Of a DNA stretch of 5,762 nucleotides, positions 1-5,762 are shown in pieces. The stretch lies in IMG/VR virus record IMGVR_UViG_3300045988_001067, positions 1 to 5,762 of that record, one strand, 5' to 3'. The DNA is from a virus. The notes under the pieces are model-generated. The model was not told the DNA's origin, made no database searches, and saw nothing but the letters and a program-made list of their open reading frames with translations. The translations under genes were made by a program, and so were the position numbers. The stretch's first letter is position 1. Each line of letters begins with the position of its first letter.

Positions 1-79
1 GTCCGAAAAGCAAGTTTTGACCCACAGTTTCTAAAGAGCCTGTCACAAGGAGCACTTGAAGGAACAGAAGTAGATATCA
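1..79. repeat. Terminal redundancy: 1..79 is identical to 5684..5762 (circular-genome assembly overlap; unit length 5683 nt)
   Basis: Base-by-base reading shows gtccgaaaagcaagttttgacc...gaagtagatatca at both ends. The VP3 reading frame runs across the junction without a stop. Confidence 0.97.
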
Positions 80-219
80 CCGAATTTCCGCAAAACATTC
101 ACGAGTATCATCGCATGATAGCGACCGCACAAGCAAACGCAATGAAGCTTGAAGAGCTGCAAAAAATGGCAGCAGAAGAAGCAAAAGCAAAACCTGAAGC
201 AAAGGAGGAAGAAAAGTGA
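1..219 (+). CDS. VP3: Internal scaffolding protein VP3, C-terminal part (continuation of 5504..5683 across the circular junction; whole protein 132 aa)
   Basis: Frame 1 is open from nt 1 to TGA 217..219 (VRKASFDPQFLKSL...KLEELQKMAAEEAKAKPEAKEEEK*) and is in phase with the ORF starting at ATG 5504 once the 79-nt overlap is removed. It sits immediately upstream of VP1, as in gokushoviruses. It has the acidic ESYSDECDIKSIV motif typical of gokushovirus VP3. Confidence 0.7.
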   Translation, partial: VRKASFDPQFLKSLSQGALEGTEVDITEFPQNIHEYHRMIATAQANAMKLEELQKMAAEEAKAKPEAKEEEK

Positions 220-1892
220 ATCGAAACAATGAACGGCACTTCAACCAAATTCCAGAAATGAAAGCAAGTCGAACACGGTTCAACCGTGACCAGACAATTC
301 TCACGACATTCGATTCAGGAAAGCTGATTCCATTCTACGTTGACGAGGTATTGCCGGGCGATACCTTCAACGTAAACACCTCAGCAATCATCCGAATGAC
401 GACACCGAAATATCCGGTGATGGACGATGCATTCATCGACTTTTACTATTTCTATTGTCCTAACAGAATTTTGTGGGACGACTTCAAACAGTTCATGGGA
501 GAAGCTGAAAGCACGCCATGGATGCCAACGAAAGAATACAAAGTGCCAAAAATAACTATAAACGGAACGCAATCAAACGGATATCCATACGAAGCATCAA
601 TTCTAGACTATATGGGTGTACCAACAAAAGTAAAAGCAAAATTTTCAATAAACGCCTTACCAATTCGCGCTTATGTCATGATTTGGAACGAATTTTTCAG
701 AGACGAAAACGTAGACAATGCAGCAGTATGGAAAAGTGACAGTCAAGACGTGGCATACCAAGACACGCAAAATGAAAATAAAATAGAAGACAACCTTAGA
801 AACGCAATCAACGGAGGACGATGCTTACCGGTAAACAAGTTCCACGACTACTTTACAAGCTGTCTGCCTTATCCGCAGCGTGGACCGGAAGTAACGCTGC
901 CGATGGAAGGTAATGCACCGGTAGGAATGTACAAAAACCTCGAACTTACAGAATACGGAACAACAAGCGGAAAAAACTCAATCTACTTCAACCAAAAAGC
1001 CACAGATTCTTACATACCAGGAATCACGAACAACCAATCAGGAAACAGAATTTCGCAGGTAGCGGGAAGCTCGAGCGCTACAGCTCATGTAGCAGATGTG
1101 GCATATCTAGGCGCCGACCTAAGCGCAGTAACCGCAGCAACCATCAACGACTTAAGAAAAGCCATAGCAGTACAGCAGTACTACGAAGCGCTCGCACGAG
1201 GCGGCAGCCGATACCGCGAACAGGTACAAGCACTGTGGGACGTGACCATCAGCGACAAAACGGCACAAATCCCGGAATATCTTGGCGGTGGACGCTATCA
1301 CGTCAACATGAACCAAATCGTACAGACAAGCGGGCAGCAGACCGAAACGGACACACCTATCGGTGAAACTGGTGCAATGTCAGTAACGCCAATCAACGAA
1401 AGCAGCTTTACAAAATCTTTTGAAGAGCACGGATTTGTAATTGGTGTCTGTTGTGTACGGCACAATCACAGTTACCAGCAAGGCTTGGAACGTTTCTGGA
1501 GCAGAGAAGACAGGCTGGACTACTATGTACCGCAGTTCGCAAATCTGGGCGAACAGCCTGTAAAAAAGAAAGAAATCATGCTCACCGGCACAGCAACGGA
1601 CGAAGAAACGTTCGGCTATCAGGAAGCCTGGGCAGACTACAGGATGAAGCCTAACCGGGTATCCGGTAAAATGCGAAGCAACGCAACGGGCACGTTGGAT
1701 TTCTGGCACTATGCAGACAACTATTCAACCGTGCCAACGCTGTCACAGGCGTGGATGGCAGAAGAAAAAACGGAGATCGCAAGAACGTTGATCGTGCAGA
1801 ATGAACCGCAATTTTTTGGTGCAATCCGAGTAGCAAACAAAACCACAAGACGGATGCCGTTGTACAGCGTACCGGGCTTGTACAAACTGTAA
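216..1892 (+). CDS. VP1: Major capsid protein VP1 (phiX174 F-like, gokushovirus type), 558 aa
   Basis: Motifs FDSGKLIPFYVDEVLPGDTF near the N-terminus and INDLRKAIAVQQYYEALARGGSRYREQVQALWDV mid-protein are hallmark Microviridae capsid motifs. AGGAGG at 203..208 lies 7 nt before GTG 216. In-frame ATG 258 is a less likely alternative start, because the residues upstream of it resemble the N-terminus of gokushovirus VP1. Confidence 0.95.
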   Translation: MNRNNERHFNQIPEMKASRTRFNRDQTILTTFDSGKLIPFYVDEVLPGDTFNVNTSAIIRMTTPKYPVMDDAFIDFYYFYCPNRILWDDFKQFMGEAESTPWMPTKEYKVPKITINGTQSNGYPYEASILDYMGVPTKVKAKFSINALPIRAYVMIWNEFFRDENVDNAAVWKSDSQDVAYQDTQNENKIEDNLRNAINGGRCLPVNKFHDYFTSCLPYPQRGPEVTLPMEGNAPVGMYKNLELTEYGTTSGKNSIYFNQKATDSYIPGITNNQSGNRISQVAGSSSATAHVADVAYLGADLSAVTAATINDLRKAIAVQQYYEALARGGSRYREQVQALWDVTISDKTAQIPEYLGGGRYHVNMNQIVQTSGQQTETDTPIGETGAMSVTPINESSFTKSFEEHGFVIGVCCVRHNHSYQQGLERFWSREDRLDYYVPQFANLGEQPVKKKEIMLTGTATDEETFGYQEAWADYRMKPNRVSGKMRSNATGTLDFWHYADNYSTVPTLSQAWMAEEKTEIARTLIVQNEPQFFGAIRVANKTTRRMPLYSVPGLYKL

Positions 1893-1902
1893 GAAAGGAG
1901 GA

Positions 1903-1928
1903 AGCCCGGAGAAATCCGGGCTATTTTT
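1903..1928 (+). terminator. Rho-independent terminator between VP1 and VP2
   Basis: Perfect 8-bp stem agcccgga (1903..1910) / tccgggct (1915..1922) with a GAAA tetraloop, followed by ATTTTTAA (T-run 1924..1928). Confidence 0.75.
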
Positions 1929-1930
1929 AA

Positions 1931-2788
1931 ATGGGAGCATTATCAGGATTCTTAACAGCACTAAACGTAGCGGGAAACGTGGCAAACACAATCGGAACTT
2001 TTGCAGGAGCAGCAAAAAACATCGCTGGAGCTTTTGGCGGATACGGACAAGAAGGCAACAGCCAAAGCCAGGGCGGAAGCACAAGTCAGGGCGGTGGACA
2101 TTCCGAAAGCGGAAGCCAGTCGGGCACAAACGTGCAACAGGTCAGTGACTGGCTCAAGCAGGCATACGCATACCAAGGGCAAGAAGCAGCCATGCAGGGC
2201 AAATACAACAGTCAAAGTATGCTTAAACAGATGGGCTATAACACGCTACAAGCAATCATGCAAGGCGTATACAACCACATCGAGAACAATGTAGCAATGA
2301 ACTACAACAGCGCAGAAGCACTAGCAAACCGTGAATGGCAAGAGCACATGAGCAGCACAGCATATCAAAGAGCCGTAGAAGATATGAAAAAAGCGGGACT
2401 TAACCCGATTCTAGCATTCTCAAACGGTGGAGCAAGCACACCAGGCGGAAGCGCAGGAACAATCAGCGGTGCAAGTATGGGACTAGCAAGCAGCAGCGCA
2501 CTAGGCGTAAGCCGAAGCGGAGGATTCGTGCCTAACGCATACGAAAGCAGCAGCTGGAGCAAAAGCGAATGGTACAATGCAGCACAAAGCTGGCAGCAGA
2601 TGCTCAGTTCAACGCATATGACACCATACGGACTACAACGAGTCTTAACAGAAATCGGAGAAGACACAAGCAAAGCAATTGACAAAAACGTACCAAAGAA
2701 AAACGACAAAAAAAGCAACTATCAAGCGCCGCAGGACAAAACAGGATCCTACGGAGAAAAAAGAAAGCCGGGTGACTACTTAAGGTGA
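1931..2788 (+). CDS. VP2: Minor capsid / DNA pilot protein VP2 (phiX174 H-like), 285 aa
   Basis: It lies directly after VP1. The N-terminal half is Gly/Ser/Gln-rich. The conserved block STAYQRAVEDMKKAGLNPILA is typical of microvirus pilot proteins. An in-frame TAA at 1928..1930 fixes ATG 1931 as the first possible start. Confidence 0.85.
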   Translation: MGALSGFLTALNVAGNVANTIGTFAGAAKNIAGAFGGYGQEGNSQSQGGSTSQGGGHSESGSQSGTNVQQVSDWLKQAYAYQGQEAAMQGKYNSQSMLKQMGYNTLQAIMQGVYNHIENNVAMNYNSAEALANREWQEHMSSTAYQRAVEDMKKAGLNPILAFSNGGASTPGGSAGTISGASMGLASSSALGVSRSGGFVPNAYESSSWSKSEWYNAAQSWQQMLSSTHMTPYGLQRVLTEIGEDTSKAIDKNVPKKNDKKSNYQAPQDKTGSYGEKRKPGDYLR

Positions 2789-3804
2789 GTTGCTACAAGC
2801 CATTAATAAGGCTGTACAACCCTAACGACAAAAACATTAGCGGGAAGGTGTATTCACTCTCCCGCTTTTCTCAGTTAGCGGGAAAACAGCTAAAATATGA
2901 AGATTTGATGTATAGAAGAGATGTAATGCTGATACCATGCGGGCAGTGCATCGGATGCAGAATAAGACAAAGGGAGGACTGGACAACACGAATAGAATTA
3001 GAAGCACGAGATTATCCAAGAGAAGAAGTTTGGTTTATCACACTCACATATGATGACGATCACGTACCGGGCATGATAGTAAACACAGGCGAAATCATGC
3101 GAAAAGTACAATACGTCTGGAAACCGGGAGAGAAGAGCCCTGAAAGCGTCCAAACGTTAATGTATACTGACGTTCAAAAGTTCTTAAAACGTCTCAGAAA
3201 GGCTTATAAGGGCAAATTACGCTATTTTGTGGCGGGAGAATACGGAGAACAGACAGCTAGGCCGCATTATCATATGATATTATACGGATGGACGCCAACA
3301 GATCTAGAACACCTATACAAAATACAACACAACGGATATTTCAAAAGTAAATGGCTAGCAGACCTATGGGGCATGGGTCAAATACAGATAGCGCAAGCAG
3401 TACCGGAAACATACAGATATGTTGCAGGATACGTCACAAAAAAAATGTACGAAATAGACGGAAAGAAAGCTAACCAATACTACGAGTTAGGTCAACAAAA
3501 ACCATTCGCGTGCATGAGCTTAAAACCCGGACTAGGAGACCACTATTACCAAGAACACAAAGAAGAAATATGGAGACAAGGATACATCCAATGTACAAAC
3601 GGAAAGAAAGCCCAAATTCCACGTTATTATGAAAAAATGATGGAAAATGAAAACCCACAAAGGTTGTGGAGAATTAAACAGAACAGACAAGCAACAGCCA
3701 TAGCAGAAAACAGGCTAAAGTATGAAAATGCAGACTTTGAAGAGCAATGTAAGACAAAAGAAAGAGTAATCAAAAAGCAAATGAAGAAGAGAGGGACACT
3801 CTAA
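2785..3804 (+). CDS. VP4: Rolling-circle replication initiator VP4 (HUH endonuclease, phiX174 A-like), 339 aa
   Basis: It has motif I FITLTYDD, the HUH motif RPHYHMILYG (cat tat cat at 3265..3273) and the double-tyrosine motif YVAGYVTKK (compare phiX A protein YVAKYVNK). It also has the N-terminal Cys cluster PCGQCIGCR. GTG start 2785 overlaps the VP2 stop (GTGA). Confidence 0.93.
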   Translation: MSCYKPLIRLYNPNDKNISGKVYSLSRFSQLAGKQLKYEDLMYRRDVMLIPCGQCIGCRIRQREDWTTRIELEARDYPREEVWFITLTYDDDHVPGMIVNTGEIMRKVQYVWKPGEKSPESVQTLMYTDVQKFLKRLRKAYKGKLRYFVAGEYGEQTARPHYHMILYGWTPTDLEHLYKIQHNGYFKSKWLADLWGMGQIQIAQAVPETYRYVAGYVTKKMYEIDGKKANQYYELGQQKPFACMSLKPGLGDHYYQEHKEEIWRQGYIQCTNGKKAQIPRYYEKMMENENPQRLWRIKQNRQATAIAENRLKYENADFEEQCKTKERVIKKQMKKRGTL

Positions 3805-3814
3805 CGGTGTCACC

Positions 3815-3847
3815 TAGCCCAGTACCTATCAAGTAAGTACTGGGCTA
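3815..3847 (+). other. Perfect hairpin (11-bp stem, 11-nt loop) just after the VP4 stop
   Basis: tagcccagtac (3815..3825) is the exact reverse complement of gtactgggcta (3837..3847). There is no downstream T-run, so it is not a classical terminator. Confidence 0.8.
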
Positions 3848-3890
3848 ATGTCGTCTAAAGACTCCATGTATCACACTATTCAGTGATTCA

Positions 3891-3918
3891 AAGGGGTTGA
3901 CTTAAAAGTCAACCCCTT
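3891..3918 (+). other. Perfect hairpin (11-bp stem, 6-nt loop)
   Basis: aaggggttgac (3891..3901) pairs with gtcaacccctt (3908..3918), with loop ttaaaa. No T-run follows. Confidence 0.8.
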
Positions 3919-3925
3919 GCGTCAC

Positions 3926-3941
3926 GCCCCAGTCTTGGGGC
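3926..3941 (+). other. Short GC hairpin (6-bp stem, 4-nt loop)
   Basis: gcccca (3926..3931) pairs with tggggc (3936..3941), with loop gtct. Confidence 0.6.
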
Positions 3942-3947
3942 TGCCGC

Positions 3948-3999
3948 TGTACGCACGTGCGCACATGCGCGTAAGCGCGCACGCGCACACGCGCGCATA
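3948..3999. repeat. GC-rich alternating purine-pyrimidine tract (two blocks of 26 and 25 nt, CG/CA type), potentially Z-DNA or cruciform forming
   Basis: 3948..3973 and 3975..3999 alternate Y/R without exception, separated only by one extra A (3974). The tract contains the palindrome cgcacgtgcg (3952..3961) and the inverted pair atgcgcg (3965..3971) / cgcgcat (3992..3998). It runs directly into the AT-only palindrome ataatattat (3997..4006). Confidence 0.85.
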
Positions 4000-4098
4000 A
4001 TATTATATAACTTGTTGTAGACGTAGTAGTAGGCAATGTGGAAAAGTTGAAAAGTACTAAAATTTAACGCTAAAGCGTAAATAAAAAGCAAAAAACAC

Positions 4099-4211
4099 TG
4101 TTGAAAGATTTGTTGAAAACTTGTTGAAATGTTGAATGTTCGTCAAAATGACGAAAACCTTTGTGCAACTTTATGTTGAAAACCTGTTGAAAGTGTTGAA
4201 AGTGTTGAAAA
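4099..4211 (+). repeat. Iteron-like array: 8 exact direct copies of TGTTGAA(A) in two clusters of four
   Basis: Copies start at 4099, 4111, 4122, 4130 and at 4174, 4185, 4194, 4203. The last three form a 9-nt tandem, tgttgaaag x3 with one mismatch. Degenerate copies lie upstream: tgttgtag at 4013, tgtggaaaa at 4037 and gttgaaaa at 4046. All copies share the same orientation. Confidence 0.9.
4139..4155 (+). other. Inverted repeat at the centre of the iteron array (7-bp stem, 3-nt loop)
   Basis: ttcgtca (4139..4145) pairs with tgacgaa (4149..4155). Confidence 0.7.
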
Positions 4212-4221
4212 CGCGCACAGC

Positions 4222-4261
4222 GCTAAAAAAGAAACCATTTTCGTGAAGACACGAAAATGGT
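4222..4261 (-). terminator. Intrinsic terminator oriented for the minus strand (12-bp hairpin followed by a T-run on the - strand)
   Basis: accattttcgtg (4234..4245) pairs with cacgaaaatggt (4250..4261), with loop aaga. On the - strand the stem is followed by ttcttttttagc (complement of 4222..4233). On the + strand no T-run follows. Confidence 0.55.
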
Positions 4262-4328
4262 GATTAGCCGAGCTCCGCGTGCGCTCCGCACGGCAAGGCG
4301 CTAAAGCGCCATTCAAACCAAAAAGCAA

Positions 4329-4357
4329 TTGACAGCCGACAAAAAAAATGATATCAT
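4329..4357 (+). promoter_or_regulatory. Near-consensus sigma70/sigmaA promoter with extended -10
   Basis: TTGACA (4329..4334), a 17-nt spacer, then TATCAT (4352..4357) preceded by TGa (4349..4351). An A-rich tract lies upstream. The first gene behind it is the peptidase: SD AAGGAG at 4391..4396 and ATG at 4404. Confidence 0.7.
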
Positions 4358-4403
4358 CTAAGATAGAAAGCAAAACGCCATGAACGAATAAAGGAGCAAA
4401 AGC

Positions 4404-4796
4404 ATGGAAATCAAAGCGTATGTAGCAGAAGAGCAAGGAAACGAACAAGTTACAGACCACTTCAAAGTAAAAGAATTTGCATGCAAAGACGGGACACCAA
4501 TCGTATTCGTAGACGATTATTTAGCAGTCATTCTAGAAATCGCAAGAAAAAAAATCAATAAACCAATCATCATCACAAGCGGATACCGCACAATAAGCCA
4601 CAATAAAAAAGTAGGAGGAGCAAAATACAGCTACCACACAAGAGGCATGGCAGCTGACATCAGAGCGAACGGAGTAACACCAAAAGAGCTCGCAAAAGTG
4701 CTAGACAGAATCGTACCAAACAGTGGCGGTATCATCGTGTATGACAATTGGGTACATTTCGACACAAGAAATGAAAAATACAGAAAGGGGGTGTAA
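4404..4796 (+). CDS. Zinc metallopeptidase of the LAS / peptidase M15 superfamily (M15_3 / YcbK-MepK-like cell-wall peptidase), 130 aa; candidate endolysin
   Basis: It has N-terminal DHFKVKEFACKDG, then SGYRTISHNKKVGGAKYSYHTRGMAADI (H78-x6-D85; cac at 4635..4637 and gac at 4656..4658) and WVHFD (H118; cat at 4755..4757). This is the canonical H-x6-D...H zinc-ligand pattern of this family. There is a strong SD and no signal peptide or TM segment. Confidence 0.85.
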   Translation: MEIKAYVAEEQGNEQVTDHFKVKEFACKDGTPIVFVDDYLAVILEIARKKINKPIIITSGYRTISHNKKVGGAKYSYHTRGMAADIRANGVTPKELAKVLDRIVPNSGGIIVYDNWVHFDTRNEKYRKGV

Positions 4797-4798
4797 AA

Positions 4799-4915
4799 AT
4801 GGCACTTATTTCCATTAAAGACGTCAAACAGGCAATTCGACTAATGATGCAGATTCTCGAAAAACTTGACGAGATTTATCACGCACTGCACGATGACGGC
4901 GAAAAAAAGGAGTAA
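4799..4915 (+). CDS. Small hypothetical protein, 38 aa, predicted amphipathic helix (absent from the supplied ORF track)
   Basis: ATG 4799 lies 2 nt after the peptidase stop and is preceded by aaaggggg (4785..4792). Translation is MALISIKDVKQAIRLMMQILEKLDEIYHALHDDGEKKE*, with stop TAA 4913..4915. Its 3' end carries the SD of the next ORF. Confidence 0.45.
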   Translation: MALISIKDVKQAIRLMMQILEKLDEIYHALHDDGEKKE

Positions 4916-4919
4916 AGTC

Positions 4920-5147
4920 ATGATGCACAAAACATGGAACGTAAGAGACGAGACCAAAGAAGCACTAGAAGAGCTGCTCGCACGAAAATACAAAGAAATT
5001 GATGGCAATTATAAAATGCTTAGAAAAGTGTCAAACATAGAAGATGCTAAAAGACTAGTAGACGAAATTTGGCAAATGAAAAACTTTACAAACGCCATCG
5101 AATTAGAGCTAATGCGAAGGGAGTACACTAATGGCACAGCATCGTAA
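4920..5147 (+). CDS. Hypothetical protein, 75 aa, helical and charged
   Basis: Same frame as track ORF 4866..5147, but ATG 4920 is preceded by AAGGAG (4907..4912) at 7-nt spacing, whereas 4866 is a TTG without an SD. I recognise no motif. Confidence 0.55.
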   Translation: MMHKTWNVRDETKEALEELLARKYKEIDGNYKMLRKVSNIEDAKRLVDEIWQMKNFTNAIELELMRREYTNGTAS

Positions 5148-5253
5148 GAAGATGAACGGCGCAAAAGACAAGCGAATGTTCAACGTAACCGCACGAAAAA
5201 CCAAAGCTATCAACCTCAGCCAGAAGCCTATGCGCGGTGGCATCCGACTGTAA
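5131..5253 (+). CDS. VP8: Small basic DNA-binding protein (gokushovirus ORF8/VP8, phiX174 J-like), 40 aa (absent from the supplied ORF track)
   Basis: Translation is MAQHRKKMNGAKDKRMFNVTARKTKAINLSQKPMRGGIRL*. It is highly basic with the C-terminal PMRGGIRL signature seen in gokushovirus small DNA-binding proteins. SD aagggag (5117..5123) lies 7 nt before the ATG. It overlaps the preceding ORF by 17 nt. Confidence 0.7.
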   Translation: MAQHRKKMNGAKDKRMFNVTARKTKAINLSQKPMRGGIRL

Positions 5254-5271
5254 AAAAAGGAGAAACAAAAA

Positions 5272-5511
5272 ATGAAACACAATTACTACGGCATTTGGGA
5301 CAGAGTGGCAAAGTGCTATGCATGGGTAGGCGAAAACAGAAGCGACGCAACGTTTGCACGGATGTGCAACGTAATGGCAAAGGACGAAAAAACTTTCATC
5401 GGGCAGAGCCCAGAGGACTACACCGGATTTAGGCTGGCAGTGTTTGAAGACGAGCTCGGCACGTTCACGAACGACACTGAAAAGGTATGGGAGGGAAAGC
5501 CGAATGAATAA
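5272..5511 (+). CDS. VP5: VP5-like non-structural protein (phiX174 C-like function proposed for gokushoviruses), 79 aa
   Basis: Size, its position just upstream of VP3, and the pattern Y.IWD.VAK.Y....A.R......D....I...PEDY..F.LA.F.D..GTF resemble gokushovirus VP5. SD AAGGAG (5257..5262) lies 9 nt before the ATG. Confidence 0.6.
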   Translation: MKHNYYGIWDRVAKCYAWVGENRSDATFARMCNVMAKDEKTFIGQSPEDYTGFRLAVFEDELGTFTNDTEKVWEGKPNE

Positions 5512-5762
5512 ACGATATGAAGAAGGGCGAGAGCCCTTCTTTTCTGAATCAGGCGAAACCATGCGAAAGCAATACGTCTGGACAAAGGACGAAAAAGGGC
5601 AAGAAGTGCTGCAAGAGACCGAACCAATCGACATCCAACAGGAAATTGAAAGCTATTCGGACGAATGCGACATCAAAAGCATCGTCCGAAAAGCAAGTTT
5701 TGACCCACAGTTTCTAAAGAGCCTGTCACAAGGAGCACTTGAAGGAACAGAAGTAGATATCA
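5504..5762 (+). CDS. VP3: Internal scaffolding protein VP3, N-terminal part (runs off the window end and continues at nt 80 of the window after removing the 79-nt overlap)
   Basis: ATG 5504 is the first ATG after in-frame stop TGA 5444..5446. gggaggg (5489..5495) lies upstream. It overlaps the VP5 stop by 8 nt (ATGAATAA). The frame is open to the window end and in phase with 1..219. Confidence 0.7.
   Translation, partial: MNKRYEEGREPFFSESGETMRKQYVWTKDEKGQEVLQETEPIDIQQEIESYSDECDIKSIVRKASFDPQFLKSLSQGALEGTEVDI
5520..5545 (+). terminator. Terminator-like hairpin inside the first codons of VP3
   Basis: agaagggc (5521..5528) pairs with gcccttct (5533..5540), with a GAGA loop, extendable by a5520-t5541. 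It is followed by TTTCT. The T-run is shorter than at 1903..1928. Confidence 0.4.

Follow-up and report, generated by a model that had tools for sequence, protein, structure and literature searches.

The circular gokushovirus genome in IMG/VR virus record IMGVR_UViG_3300045988_001067 encodes a small soluble peptidoglycan peptidase of the MEROPS M15A / Pfam Peptidase_M15_3 type, predicted to depend on Zn, which likely serves as the endolysin of the phage. The stretch that we analysed (positions 1 to 5,762 of that record, 5,762 nucleotides (nt); hereafter the window) is one 5,683-nt unit of this microvirus genome followed by a 79-nt terminal redundancy, and every recognisable gene in it lies on the + strand. 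Its nearest records by DNA similarity are human- and pig-gut Gokushovirinae, at 77-85% across most of the genome. Lysis is understood only for phiX-type microviruses. Gokushoviruses are among the most abundant single-stranded DNA (ssDNA) phages of the human gut, and those living there have neither an established lysis mechanism nor a cultured host. The peptidase is the best candidate for a lysis gene in this group. It is also the best clue to the host, because its closest homologues outside the microviruses are found in Faecalibacterium and other Clostridia.

The gene itself is already known, since public records annotate it and both the endolysin and the horizontal transfer hypotheses go back to 2012. 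In that year Roux et al. (PMC3394797) described M15_3 peptidases from gut gokushoviruses (five) and alpaviruses (six), found their closest homologues adjoining holin genes in Faecalibacterium prausnitzii, proposed acquisition from Faecalibacterium-like prophages together with an endolysin role, and speculated on Gram-positive hosts. Kirchberger 2022 shares the endolysin hypothesis, and microviral peptidases are treated as presumed lysis genes in Kirchberger 2020, Kirchberger 2022, Zhang 2024 and Bardy 2022. The NR database holds an identical 130-amino-acid (aa) protein as 'MAG TPA: peptidase [Microviridae sp.]' (P0001, 199 member sequences), and proteins 'similar to peptidase' occur in many pig and human Microviridae records at 60-69% identity. 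The human gut gokushovirus SH-CHD5 (KX513868.1) carries a 'peptidase M15' (ARQ16010.1) with 93% aa identity, in the same position between VP4 and VP5 and with the same small open reading frames (ORFs) downstream as in the window; its upstream accessory region is longer, about 990 nt with extra small ORFs as against 599 nt. What we add here is the fixation and constraint of the gene across a whole clade, its absence from sister lineages, and the separation of the neighbouring non-coding block from the peptidase. The window is a clean and typical example, and the interest that remains lies in how, with about nine genes to the genome and no holin among them, an endolysin devoid of an export signal does its work, and in what it implies for the host.

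The peptidase gene and the codons of its predicted active site are placed as follows:

4404-4796, + strand: peptidase gene, ATG start, 130 aa, a single-domain Peptidase_M15_3 / MEROPS M15A protein (LAS fold)
4587-4589, + strand: codon of R62 in the SGYR motif, the counterpart of R138 in the Streptomyces albus Zn DD-peptidase
4629-4658, + strand: SxHxxGxAxD motif, S76-Y-H78-T-R-G81-M-A83-A-D85, with H78 (4635-4637) and D85 (4656-4658) as predicted Zn ligands
4749-4763, + strand: WxH motif with an acidic residue, W116-V-H118-F-D120, with H118 as the predicted third Zn ligand and D120 as candidate general base

Membership of Peptidase_M15_3, MEROPS M15A and the LAS fold is confirmed by profile, motifs and structural model, and from it Zn binding and peptidoglycan hydrolysis are predicted. 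In a profile hidden Markov model search the protein matched Pfam Peptidase_M15_3 (PF08291) at an E value of 4.2e-22 and 78.8 bits, far above the cutoff of 23.2 and over profile positions 2-108 of 108, and it matched the PHROG family phrog_894 'endolysin' at 8.8e-42. The initial annotation, made from the sequence alone, had reported a complete H-x6-D...H zinc triad in a 130-aa M15/LAS peptidase. This reading is borne out by H78, D85 and H118, which are intact and joined by R62 and D120; all five residues are invariant in 120 database homologues (65-100% identity) and in 81 copies from related genomes, so that no loss of a zinc ligand is seen among close relatives. Position 116 is W in 69 of the 81 copies, F in the other 12 and never another residue. 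The same annotation had called the protein 'M15_3/YcbK-like', of which the first half stands. The second is only a loose label, as the protein scores 26.4 bits with Peptidase_M15_2 / DUF882 (YcbK/MepK, PF05951), just short of the cutoff of 27 and with no more than partial coverage, and a signal sequence is missing; the JGI label 'YcbK (DUF882)' is accordingly loose.

An AlphaFold2 model built with 51 sequences reached a predicted local distance difference test score (pLDDT) of 91.4 and a predicted TM-score (pTM) of 0.85, and yielded the expected LAS fold. Its best Foldseek neighbours in the PDB all have that fold: 1LBU, VanY (5HNM, 6A6A), ChiX, Ply500, LysECD7, LysB4, the T5 endolysin and Hedgehog-N (Shh-N), at probabilities of 0.87-1.00 and TM-scores of about 0.4-0.5. 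Among predicted viral structures (BFVD) the model superposes on phage M15A peptidases at TM-scores of 0.90-0.94, and marine microvirus peptidases match as well. The Zn D-Ala-D-Ala carboxypeptidase of Streptomyces albus G (1LBU), the M15A type enzyme, is the best PDB match both by sequence (E value 5e-4, catalytic core) and by fold (probability 1.00), and an ungapped phmmer alignment pairs H78, D85 and R62 with its H154, D161 and R138; a role for R138 is proposed in PMC13461873. The type enzyme differs from the microviral protein in being secreted and in its additional N-terminal peptidoglycan-binding domain, and the two share 23% identity and a TM-score of 0.49 over 91 columns.

The SxHxxGxAxD and (W/F)xH motifs are those by which the literature defines M15A phage endolysins (PMC13461873, PMC5025407). 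Three such proteins, LysPM1 of Proteus phage Homer, the peptidase M15A of Burkholderia phage ST79, and Spp64, share the Pfam domain, both motifs, the conserved Arg and a similar size with the microviral peptidase; they differ in coming from tailed phages of Gram-negative hosts, with holin and spanin partners. The characterised LysPM1 also has the (W/F)xH..D arrangement (H104, D106; PMC13461873). Single-domain M15_3 endolysins are muralytic and metal-dependent, as reported for LysPM1 (116 aa; PMC13461873) and ST79 M15A (PMC5025407).

Outside the microviruses, the closest cellular copies (40-48% identity) belong to Faecalibacterium species, Christensenellaceae, Peptococcaceae and Acutalibacteraceae, and the closest copy from an isolated phage (47% identity) is the annotated endolysin of Faecalibacterium phage FP_Toutatis (AUV56799.1). 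Like the microviral protein, the FP_Toutatis and Faecalibacterium copies fall into phrog_894 and are single-domain, signal-less and of similar size (137-144 aa). Unlike the microvirus, these loci encode proteins with one or two transmembrane segments directly after the enzyme. A holin lies just downstream of the peptidase homologue in Faecalibacterium intestinale (locus L092; phrog_263, 1e-22) and in an Acutalibacteraceae locus (L103; phrog_1129, 1e-23). As judged from these loci, the microvirus has retained the enzyme and not the holin.

We followed the gene through 88 related genomes with VP1 identities of 67-86% to the window, 80 of them from IMG/VR. It is present in every complete genome of the set. 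It is missing or truncated in seven linear contigs that end within the gene or next to it, and in an eighth contig (L058) the entire stretch between the peptidase and VP5, both included, is absent. Among the 80 IMG/VR relatives, seven (L021, L028, L045, L052, L054, L071 and L076) are linear contigs broken in or near the VP4-peptidase region, which suggests that this region, with its repeats, hairpins and allelic diversity, often interrupts assembly; the peptidase could thus look absent in surveys. The pairwise ratio of nonsynonymous to synonymous substitution rates (dN/dS) is 0.08-0.15 in unsaturated comparisons with the window, with a median of 0.15 over 820 pairs, as is typical of a sequence under strong purifying selection. 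In composition the gene (GC content 0.41, GC content at third codon positions (GC3) 0.40, A content 0.42) matches VP4 (GC 0.40, GC3 0.41), so it is fully ameliorated. Presence in all complete clade members and this VP4-like composition together led us to reject a sporadic or recent acquisition. The initial annotation had mentioned sporadic reports of microviral peptidases lacking functional work; such reports do exist (Roux 2012), but among the members of this clade the gene is universal.

Across the clade the peptidases are 47 to 95% identical to that of the window, and this identity does not track the identity of VP1 or VP4 (Spearman 0.19 and 0.14), whereas VP1 and VP2 correlate with each other (0.45). 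In L010, for example, VP1 is 86% and the peptidase 62% identical to the window, and in L043 the values are 78% and 95%. This pattern points to peptidase alleles being exchanged by recombination among clade members, and Kirchberger 2022 noted a peptidase exchange for another microvirus pair. In a neighbour-joining tree without bootstrap, the 81 microviral copies form one group apart from 29 bacterial and tailed-phage copies, which is weak evidence for a single origin. We also considered several independent acquisitions within the clade and set them aside on the strength of this (weakly supported) single group, the missing correlation with VP1 and VP4 being better explained by allele exchange. 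The horizontal acquisition that had been suspected from the sequence is supported.

The peptidase sits in the VP4-VP5 interval, as had been noted at the outset. The remaining parts of the genome are arranged as follows:

216-1892, + strand: VP1, major capsid protein (Pfam Phage_F, 2.6e-139)
1931-2788, + strand: VP2, pilot protein (phrog_8742), a gene separate from the peptidase
2785-3804, + strand: VP4, replication initiator
3805-4403: non-coding gap, 599 nt
4799-4915, + strand: small ORF O38
4920-5147, + strand: small ORF O75
5131-5253, + strand: small ORF O40 (phrog_10695)
5272-5511, + strand: VP5
5504 to 219, + strand: VP3, wrapping the window ends

Six more distant gut gokushoviruses (VP1 identity 45-56%) have O38, O40, VP5 and a conserved non-coding element and lack the peptidase, with other small ORFs in the VP4-VP5 interval. 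The comparison therefore suggests that the peptidase is a clade-specific addition, gained in a single ancient event by an accessory interval of variable content.

These observations fit a sequence of events in which an ancestor of the gut clade would have taken the peptidase from a Faecalibacterium-type phage or prophage of Clostridia, where it belonged to a holin-endolysin cassette, with purifying selection maintaining it since. Transcription would proceed from the double-stranded replicative form with the peptidase as first cistron of the main operon, the enzyme would build up in the cytoplasm alongside the capsid proteins, and on reaching the murein it would cleave the wall and lyse the cell. 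We infer the muralytic activity, the lysis role, the co-transcription and a Bacillota host. The endolysin explanation is favoured by the homologues in lysis cassettes, the retention of the gene throughout the clade, its low dN/dS and the LAS-fold endolysins among its structural neighbours. The suggestion of an enzymatic lysis module is plausible and agrees with what the family profile, the motifs, the modelled fold, the conservation and the selection analysis show. We see no other lysis gene, because no + frame contains a transmembrane ORF resembling phiX174 protein E. The latter does the same job of progeny release in the same virus family by an unrelated mechanism, as it is a 91-aa overprinted membrane protein that inhibits MraY and is not an enzyme.

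Four points weigh against an endolysin role. We found no functional test of a microviral M15 peptidase in the literature. The coding strand offers no holin, signal peptide, signal-arrest-release (SAR) domain or transmembrane ORF, so the canonical route to the murein is missing. The type enzyme 1LBU is a DD-carboxypeptidase, and such an activity alone would not lyse a cell. Finally, the peptidase-less sister lineages keep the same gene order, and related phages can evidently finish their cycle without the enzyme.

The missing export route was examined in a screen of all ORFs of at least 25 aa in the three + frames of the circularised genome, using the mean Kyte-Doolittle hydropathy over 19 residues (KD19) with a transmembrane threshold of ~1.6. 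The peptidase has no signal peptide, SAR domain or transmembrane segment: its N-terminus (MEIKAYVAEEQGNEQVTDHF) is acidic and not hydrophobic, and its most hydrophobic 19-residue stretch (1.16) is an internal strand-helix of the fold. No holin-like or E-like ORF appeared in the + frames, where the maximum KD19 of 1.29 lies within VP1. In both respects the expectation from the first inspection of the sequence, a signal-less peptidase in a genome devoid of a hydrophobic holin-like ORF, was upheld. The gene thus forms no canonical holin-endolysin cassette, having no adjacent membrane protein and neither signal nor SAR sequence, and no small overprinted transmembrane ORF of the phiX174 E type is present in the + frames. 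The ORFs neighbouring the peptidase in eight relatives have no transmembrane segments either. With a T-rich complement, all minus-strand ORFs of the window come out as hydrophobic. A complementary-strand ORF beside one peptidase was noted by Roux et al. 2012 (PMC3394797). The minus-strand ORF at 4143-4460 (105 aa, overlapping the promoter described below) was rejected as a gene, since its long matches among the top hits in relatives contain one to four in-frame stops; judged from these alignments, its conservation is at the DNA level.

An enzyme that stays in the cytoplasm could act there. It might cleave peptidoglycan precursors (D-Ala-D-Ala, UDP-MurNAc-pentapeptide or the lipid II stem peptide) as the M15 enzymes VanX, VanY and VanXY do, and so starve wall synthesis until growing cells lyse without a holin, in what would be an enzymatic 'amurin' that achieves the logic of phiX174 E by catalysis. 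The lack of both an export signal and a holin in the + frames speaks for this, as does the ranking of solved structures by sequence and fold, which puts a D-Ala-D-Ala carboxypeptidase (1LBU) first and VanY next. The amoyvirus vB_RpoMi-Mini, with four predicted genes only, still has an M15 peptidase (PMC9865509). We nevertheless regard precursor cleavage as quite unlikely. The nearest homologues lie in holin-endolysin cassettes and so act on the mature wall, characterised M15_3 phage enzymes lyse permeabilised cells from outside, and we found no evidence of precursor cleavage by any M15_3 member. Nor does the protein belong to the VanX/VanY type (M15B/D), as no VanY or VanX Pfam match occurs at E <=0.01 and the likeness to VanY is at the level of fold only.

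A variant of the endolysin explanation would dispense with a dedicated holin by letting a phage protein with another main job, VP2 or a conserved small ORF, open the membrane for the enzyme. The Gly/Ala-rich N-terminus of VP2 (ALSGFLTALNVAGNVANTI), which would insert into the membrane, exceeds the N-terminal segments of all other genes in hydrophobicity (Kyte-Doolittle value 1.09), but it stays under the transmembrane threshold. The other candidate is O38, a conserved amphipathic ORF of 38 aa that begins 3 nt past the peptidase stop, at the spot where Clostridia prophage loci carry transmembrane proteins or holins downstream of the peptidase. It is acidic, has no transmembrane segment and is equally conserved where the peptidase is absent, and for these reasons we rejected it as a peptidase-specific lysis partner. 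A helper of this kind seems rather improbable to us.

O38 deserves attention in its own right. The net-acidic protein (MALISIKDVKQAIRLMMQILEKLDEIYHALHD...) has its own Shine-Dalgarno sequence and is kept in 86 of the 88 relatives and in 31 GenBank microvirus records, where it is almost never annotated; a search for family matches returned none. A peptidase-less related gokushovirus (L158, KT264790.1) has a different 38-aa ORF just before VP5 (5148-5264, + strand) with a strong transmembrane segment (MNIIIWIGCIASLIAICSASFALIAMGIDIIKNWKEKE, KD19 2.36), which is a candidate for an alternative single-gene lysis or holin-like protein and had no PHROG match.

The enzyme might instead be packaged in or on the virion and open the wall locally at DNA delivery, in the manner of virion-associated lysins. 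Among tailed phages, large tail or virion proteins (400-1191 aa) do contain M15A domains, some of them together with Gp5 OB-fold domains, and a thick Gram-positive wall could need local digestion. The microviral peptidase is, on the other hand, a free-standing 15-kDa protein with no extension for binding capsid or pilot protein, the pilot VP2 is encoded separately, and sister lineages with homologous VP1 and VP2 do without it. We know of no minor virion protein of the peptidase kind in gokushoviruses, and consider a role in entry very unlikely.

A more far-reaching proposal would be that holin-less M15 microviruses use an undescribed lysis route, either by destruction of precursors in the cytoplasm or by a structural (pilot) protein that doubles as the membrane lesion, and that this abundant gut gokushovirus clade infects Clostridia such as Faecalibacterium, whose wall is of the Gram-positive type; taken as a whole, we deem it unlikely.

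Expression of the peptidase would depend on signals just upstream of it and on one behind VP1:

4329-4357, + strand: sigma-70/SigA-type promoter, with -35 TTGACA (4329-4334), 17-nt spacer, extended -10 TG (4349-4350) and -10 TATCAT (4352-4357)
4391-4396, + strand: Shine-Dalgarno sequence AAGGAG, 7 nt before the peptidase ATG
1903-1922, + strand: intrinsic-terminator-like hairpin followed by ATTTTT, after VP1 (terminator scan: 8-bp stem, 6 G-C pairs, T-run)

The initial annotation had placed the peptidase first behind the best promoter of the genome, TTGACA-17-TATCAT with a TG extension, and this site is indeed the sole 11/12 consensus match in the window, all others being 9/12. Promoter-like sites total 10 against a shuffle expectation of 7.1 +/- 2.2; there is no excess, so only the site at 4329-4357 stands out. 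A reading as the peptidase's own promoter is less well founded. Of 81 genomes, 48 have a match of at least 10/12 within 200 nt upstream of the peptidase, the usual distance to the ATG being 20-26 nt; the TG extension is present in 28 of those 48, and the other 33 genomes have no such match; in L002 and L004 other small ORFs intervene directly upstream of the peptidase. The simplest reading, we infer, is that of a main operon promoter from which the peptidase as first cistron, the small ORFs, VP5, VP3 and VP1 would be transcribed, because it is the only strong promoter in the genome, the genes are co-oriented and a terminator-like hairpin follows VP1. It is thus probably not a dedicated lysis or peptidase promoter. 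The hairpin at 1903-1922 would then likely be the end or an attenuation point of the transcript begun at 4329.

GGAG-type Shine-Dalgarno sequences also precede VP1, O38, O75, O40, VP5 and VP3. At 1893-1933 a Shine-Dalgarno-like AAAGGAGG follows VP1, and the hairpin sits between it and the VP2 ATG (1931); the folded hairpin would move the Shine-Dalgarno near the VP2 start, which could link termination or read-through to VP2 translation. Several relatives (L003, about 1650-1680; L005, L006 and L007) have a GC-rich hairpin (e.g. agcccagggTTGACAgccctgggc), preceded by an A-run, whose loop contains or adjoins the -35 TTGACA of the peptidase promoter, an arrangement that could couple termination or ssDNA structure with promoter function. 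Two further small ORFs are conserved and left unannotated by most GenBank relatives: O75 encodes a 75-aa helical protein for which we found no family match, and O40 a very basic 40-aa protein (phrog_10695, ...FNVTARKTKAINLSQKPMRGGIRL) that may be the DNA-binding/packaging protein.

The non-coding block between VP4 and the peptidase has the 599 nt first ascribed to it (3805-4403), and was initially seen as a piece of the acquired cassette. This view had to be abandoned, as the core of the block is conserved at the DNA level in sister lineages that lack the peptidase. Seven exact copies of TGTTGAAA, all on the + strand, lie at 4099-4210 in two clusters with 9-12 nt spacing, where 0.33 would be expected by chance. 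The array is found in about 80% of 95 genomes examined, peptidase-less ones included, and is almost absent on the minus strand. Distant gokushoviruses without any other megablast match to the window are 81-84% identical to it over the segment 3959-4214. By its conservation the array block is probably an iteron-like element acting in cis; judging by how ssDNA phages replicate, it might be an origin, a site of complementary-strand initiation or priming, or a protein-binding array.

In several relatives (L001 1351-1527; L002 3886-4050; L006 1262-1471; L007 1320-1529) the GTTGAA array lies within an ORF of 48-79 aa, M(T/P)KIIVQHFVENLLKVLKVLKTRTAL...LAELR.RYARQGAKAP. In the window (4136-4246) an additional perfect hairpin of 12 bp (4234-4261) cuts this ORF down to 36 aa, but LAELRVRSARQGAKAPFKPK is still encoded downstream, in a different frame. 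As a GTTGAAA repeat has stops in only one of its three frames, the array ORF may be a by-product of the repeat. Upstream, at 3944-3998, lies a GC-rich alternating purine-pyrimidine tract (CGCACGTGCGCACATGCGCG...) with 8-nt periodicity and many overlapping palindromes. An Rfam scan of the window returned one sub-threshold chance match, to mir-297 at this tract (29.9 bits against a gathering score of 90). Similar tracts lie upstream of a conserved ATAACTTGTTGTAG motif in close relatives, and not in L153 and L154. Strong hairpins at 3815-3847, 3891-3918 and 4296-4309, just past VP4 and before the promoter, include 14-bp and perfect 13-bp stems, the second with TTGAC in its stem; they may be terminators without T-runs or signals for complementary-strand priming.

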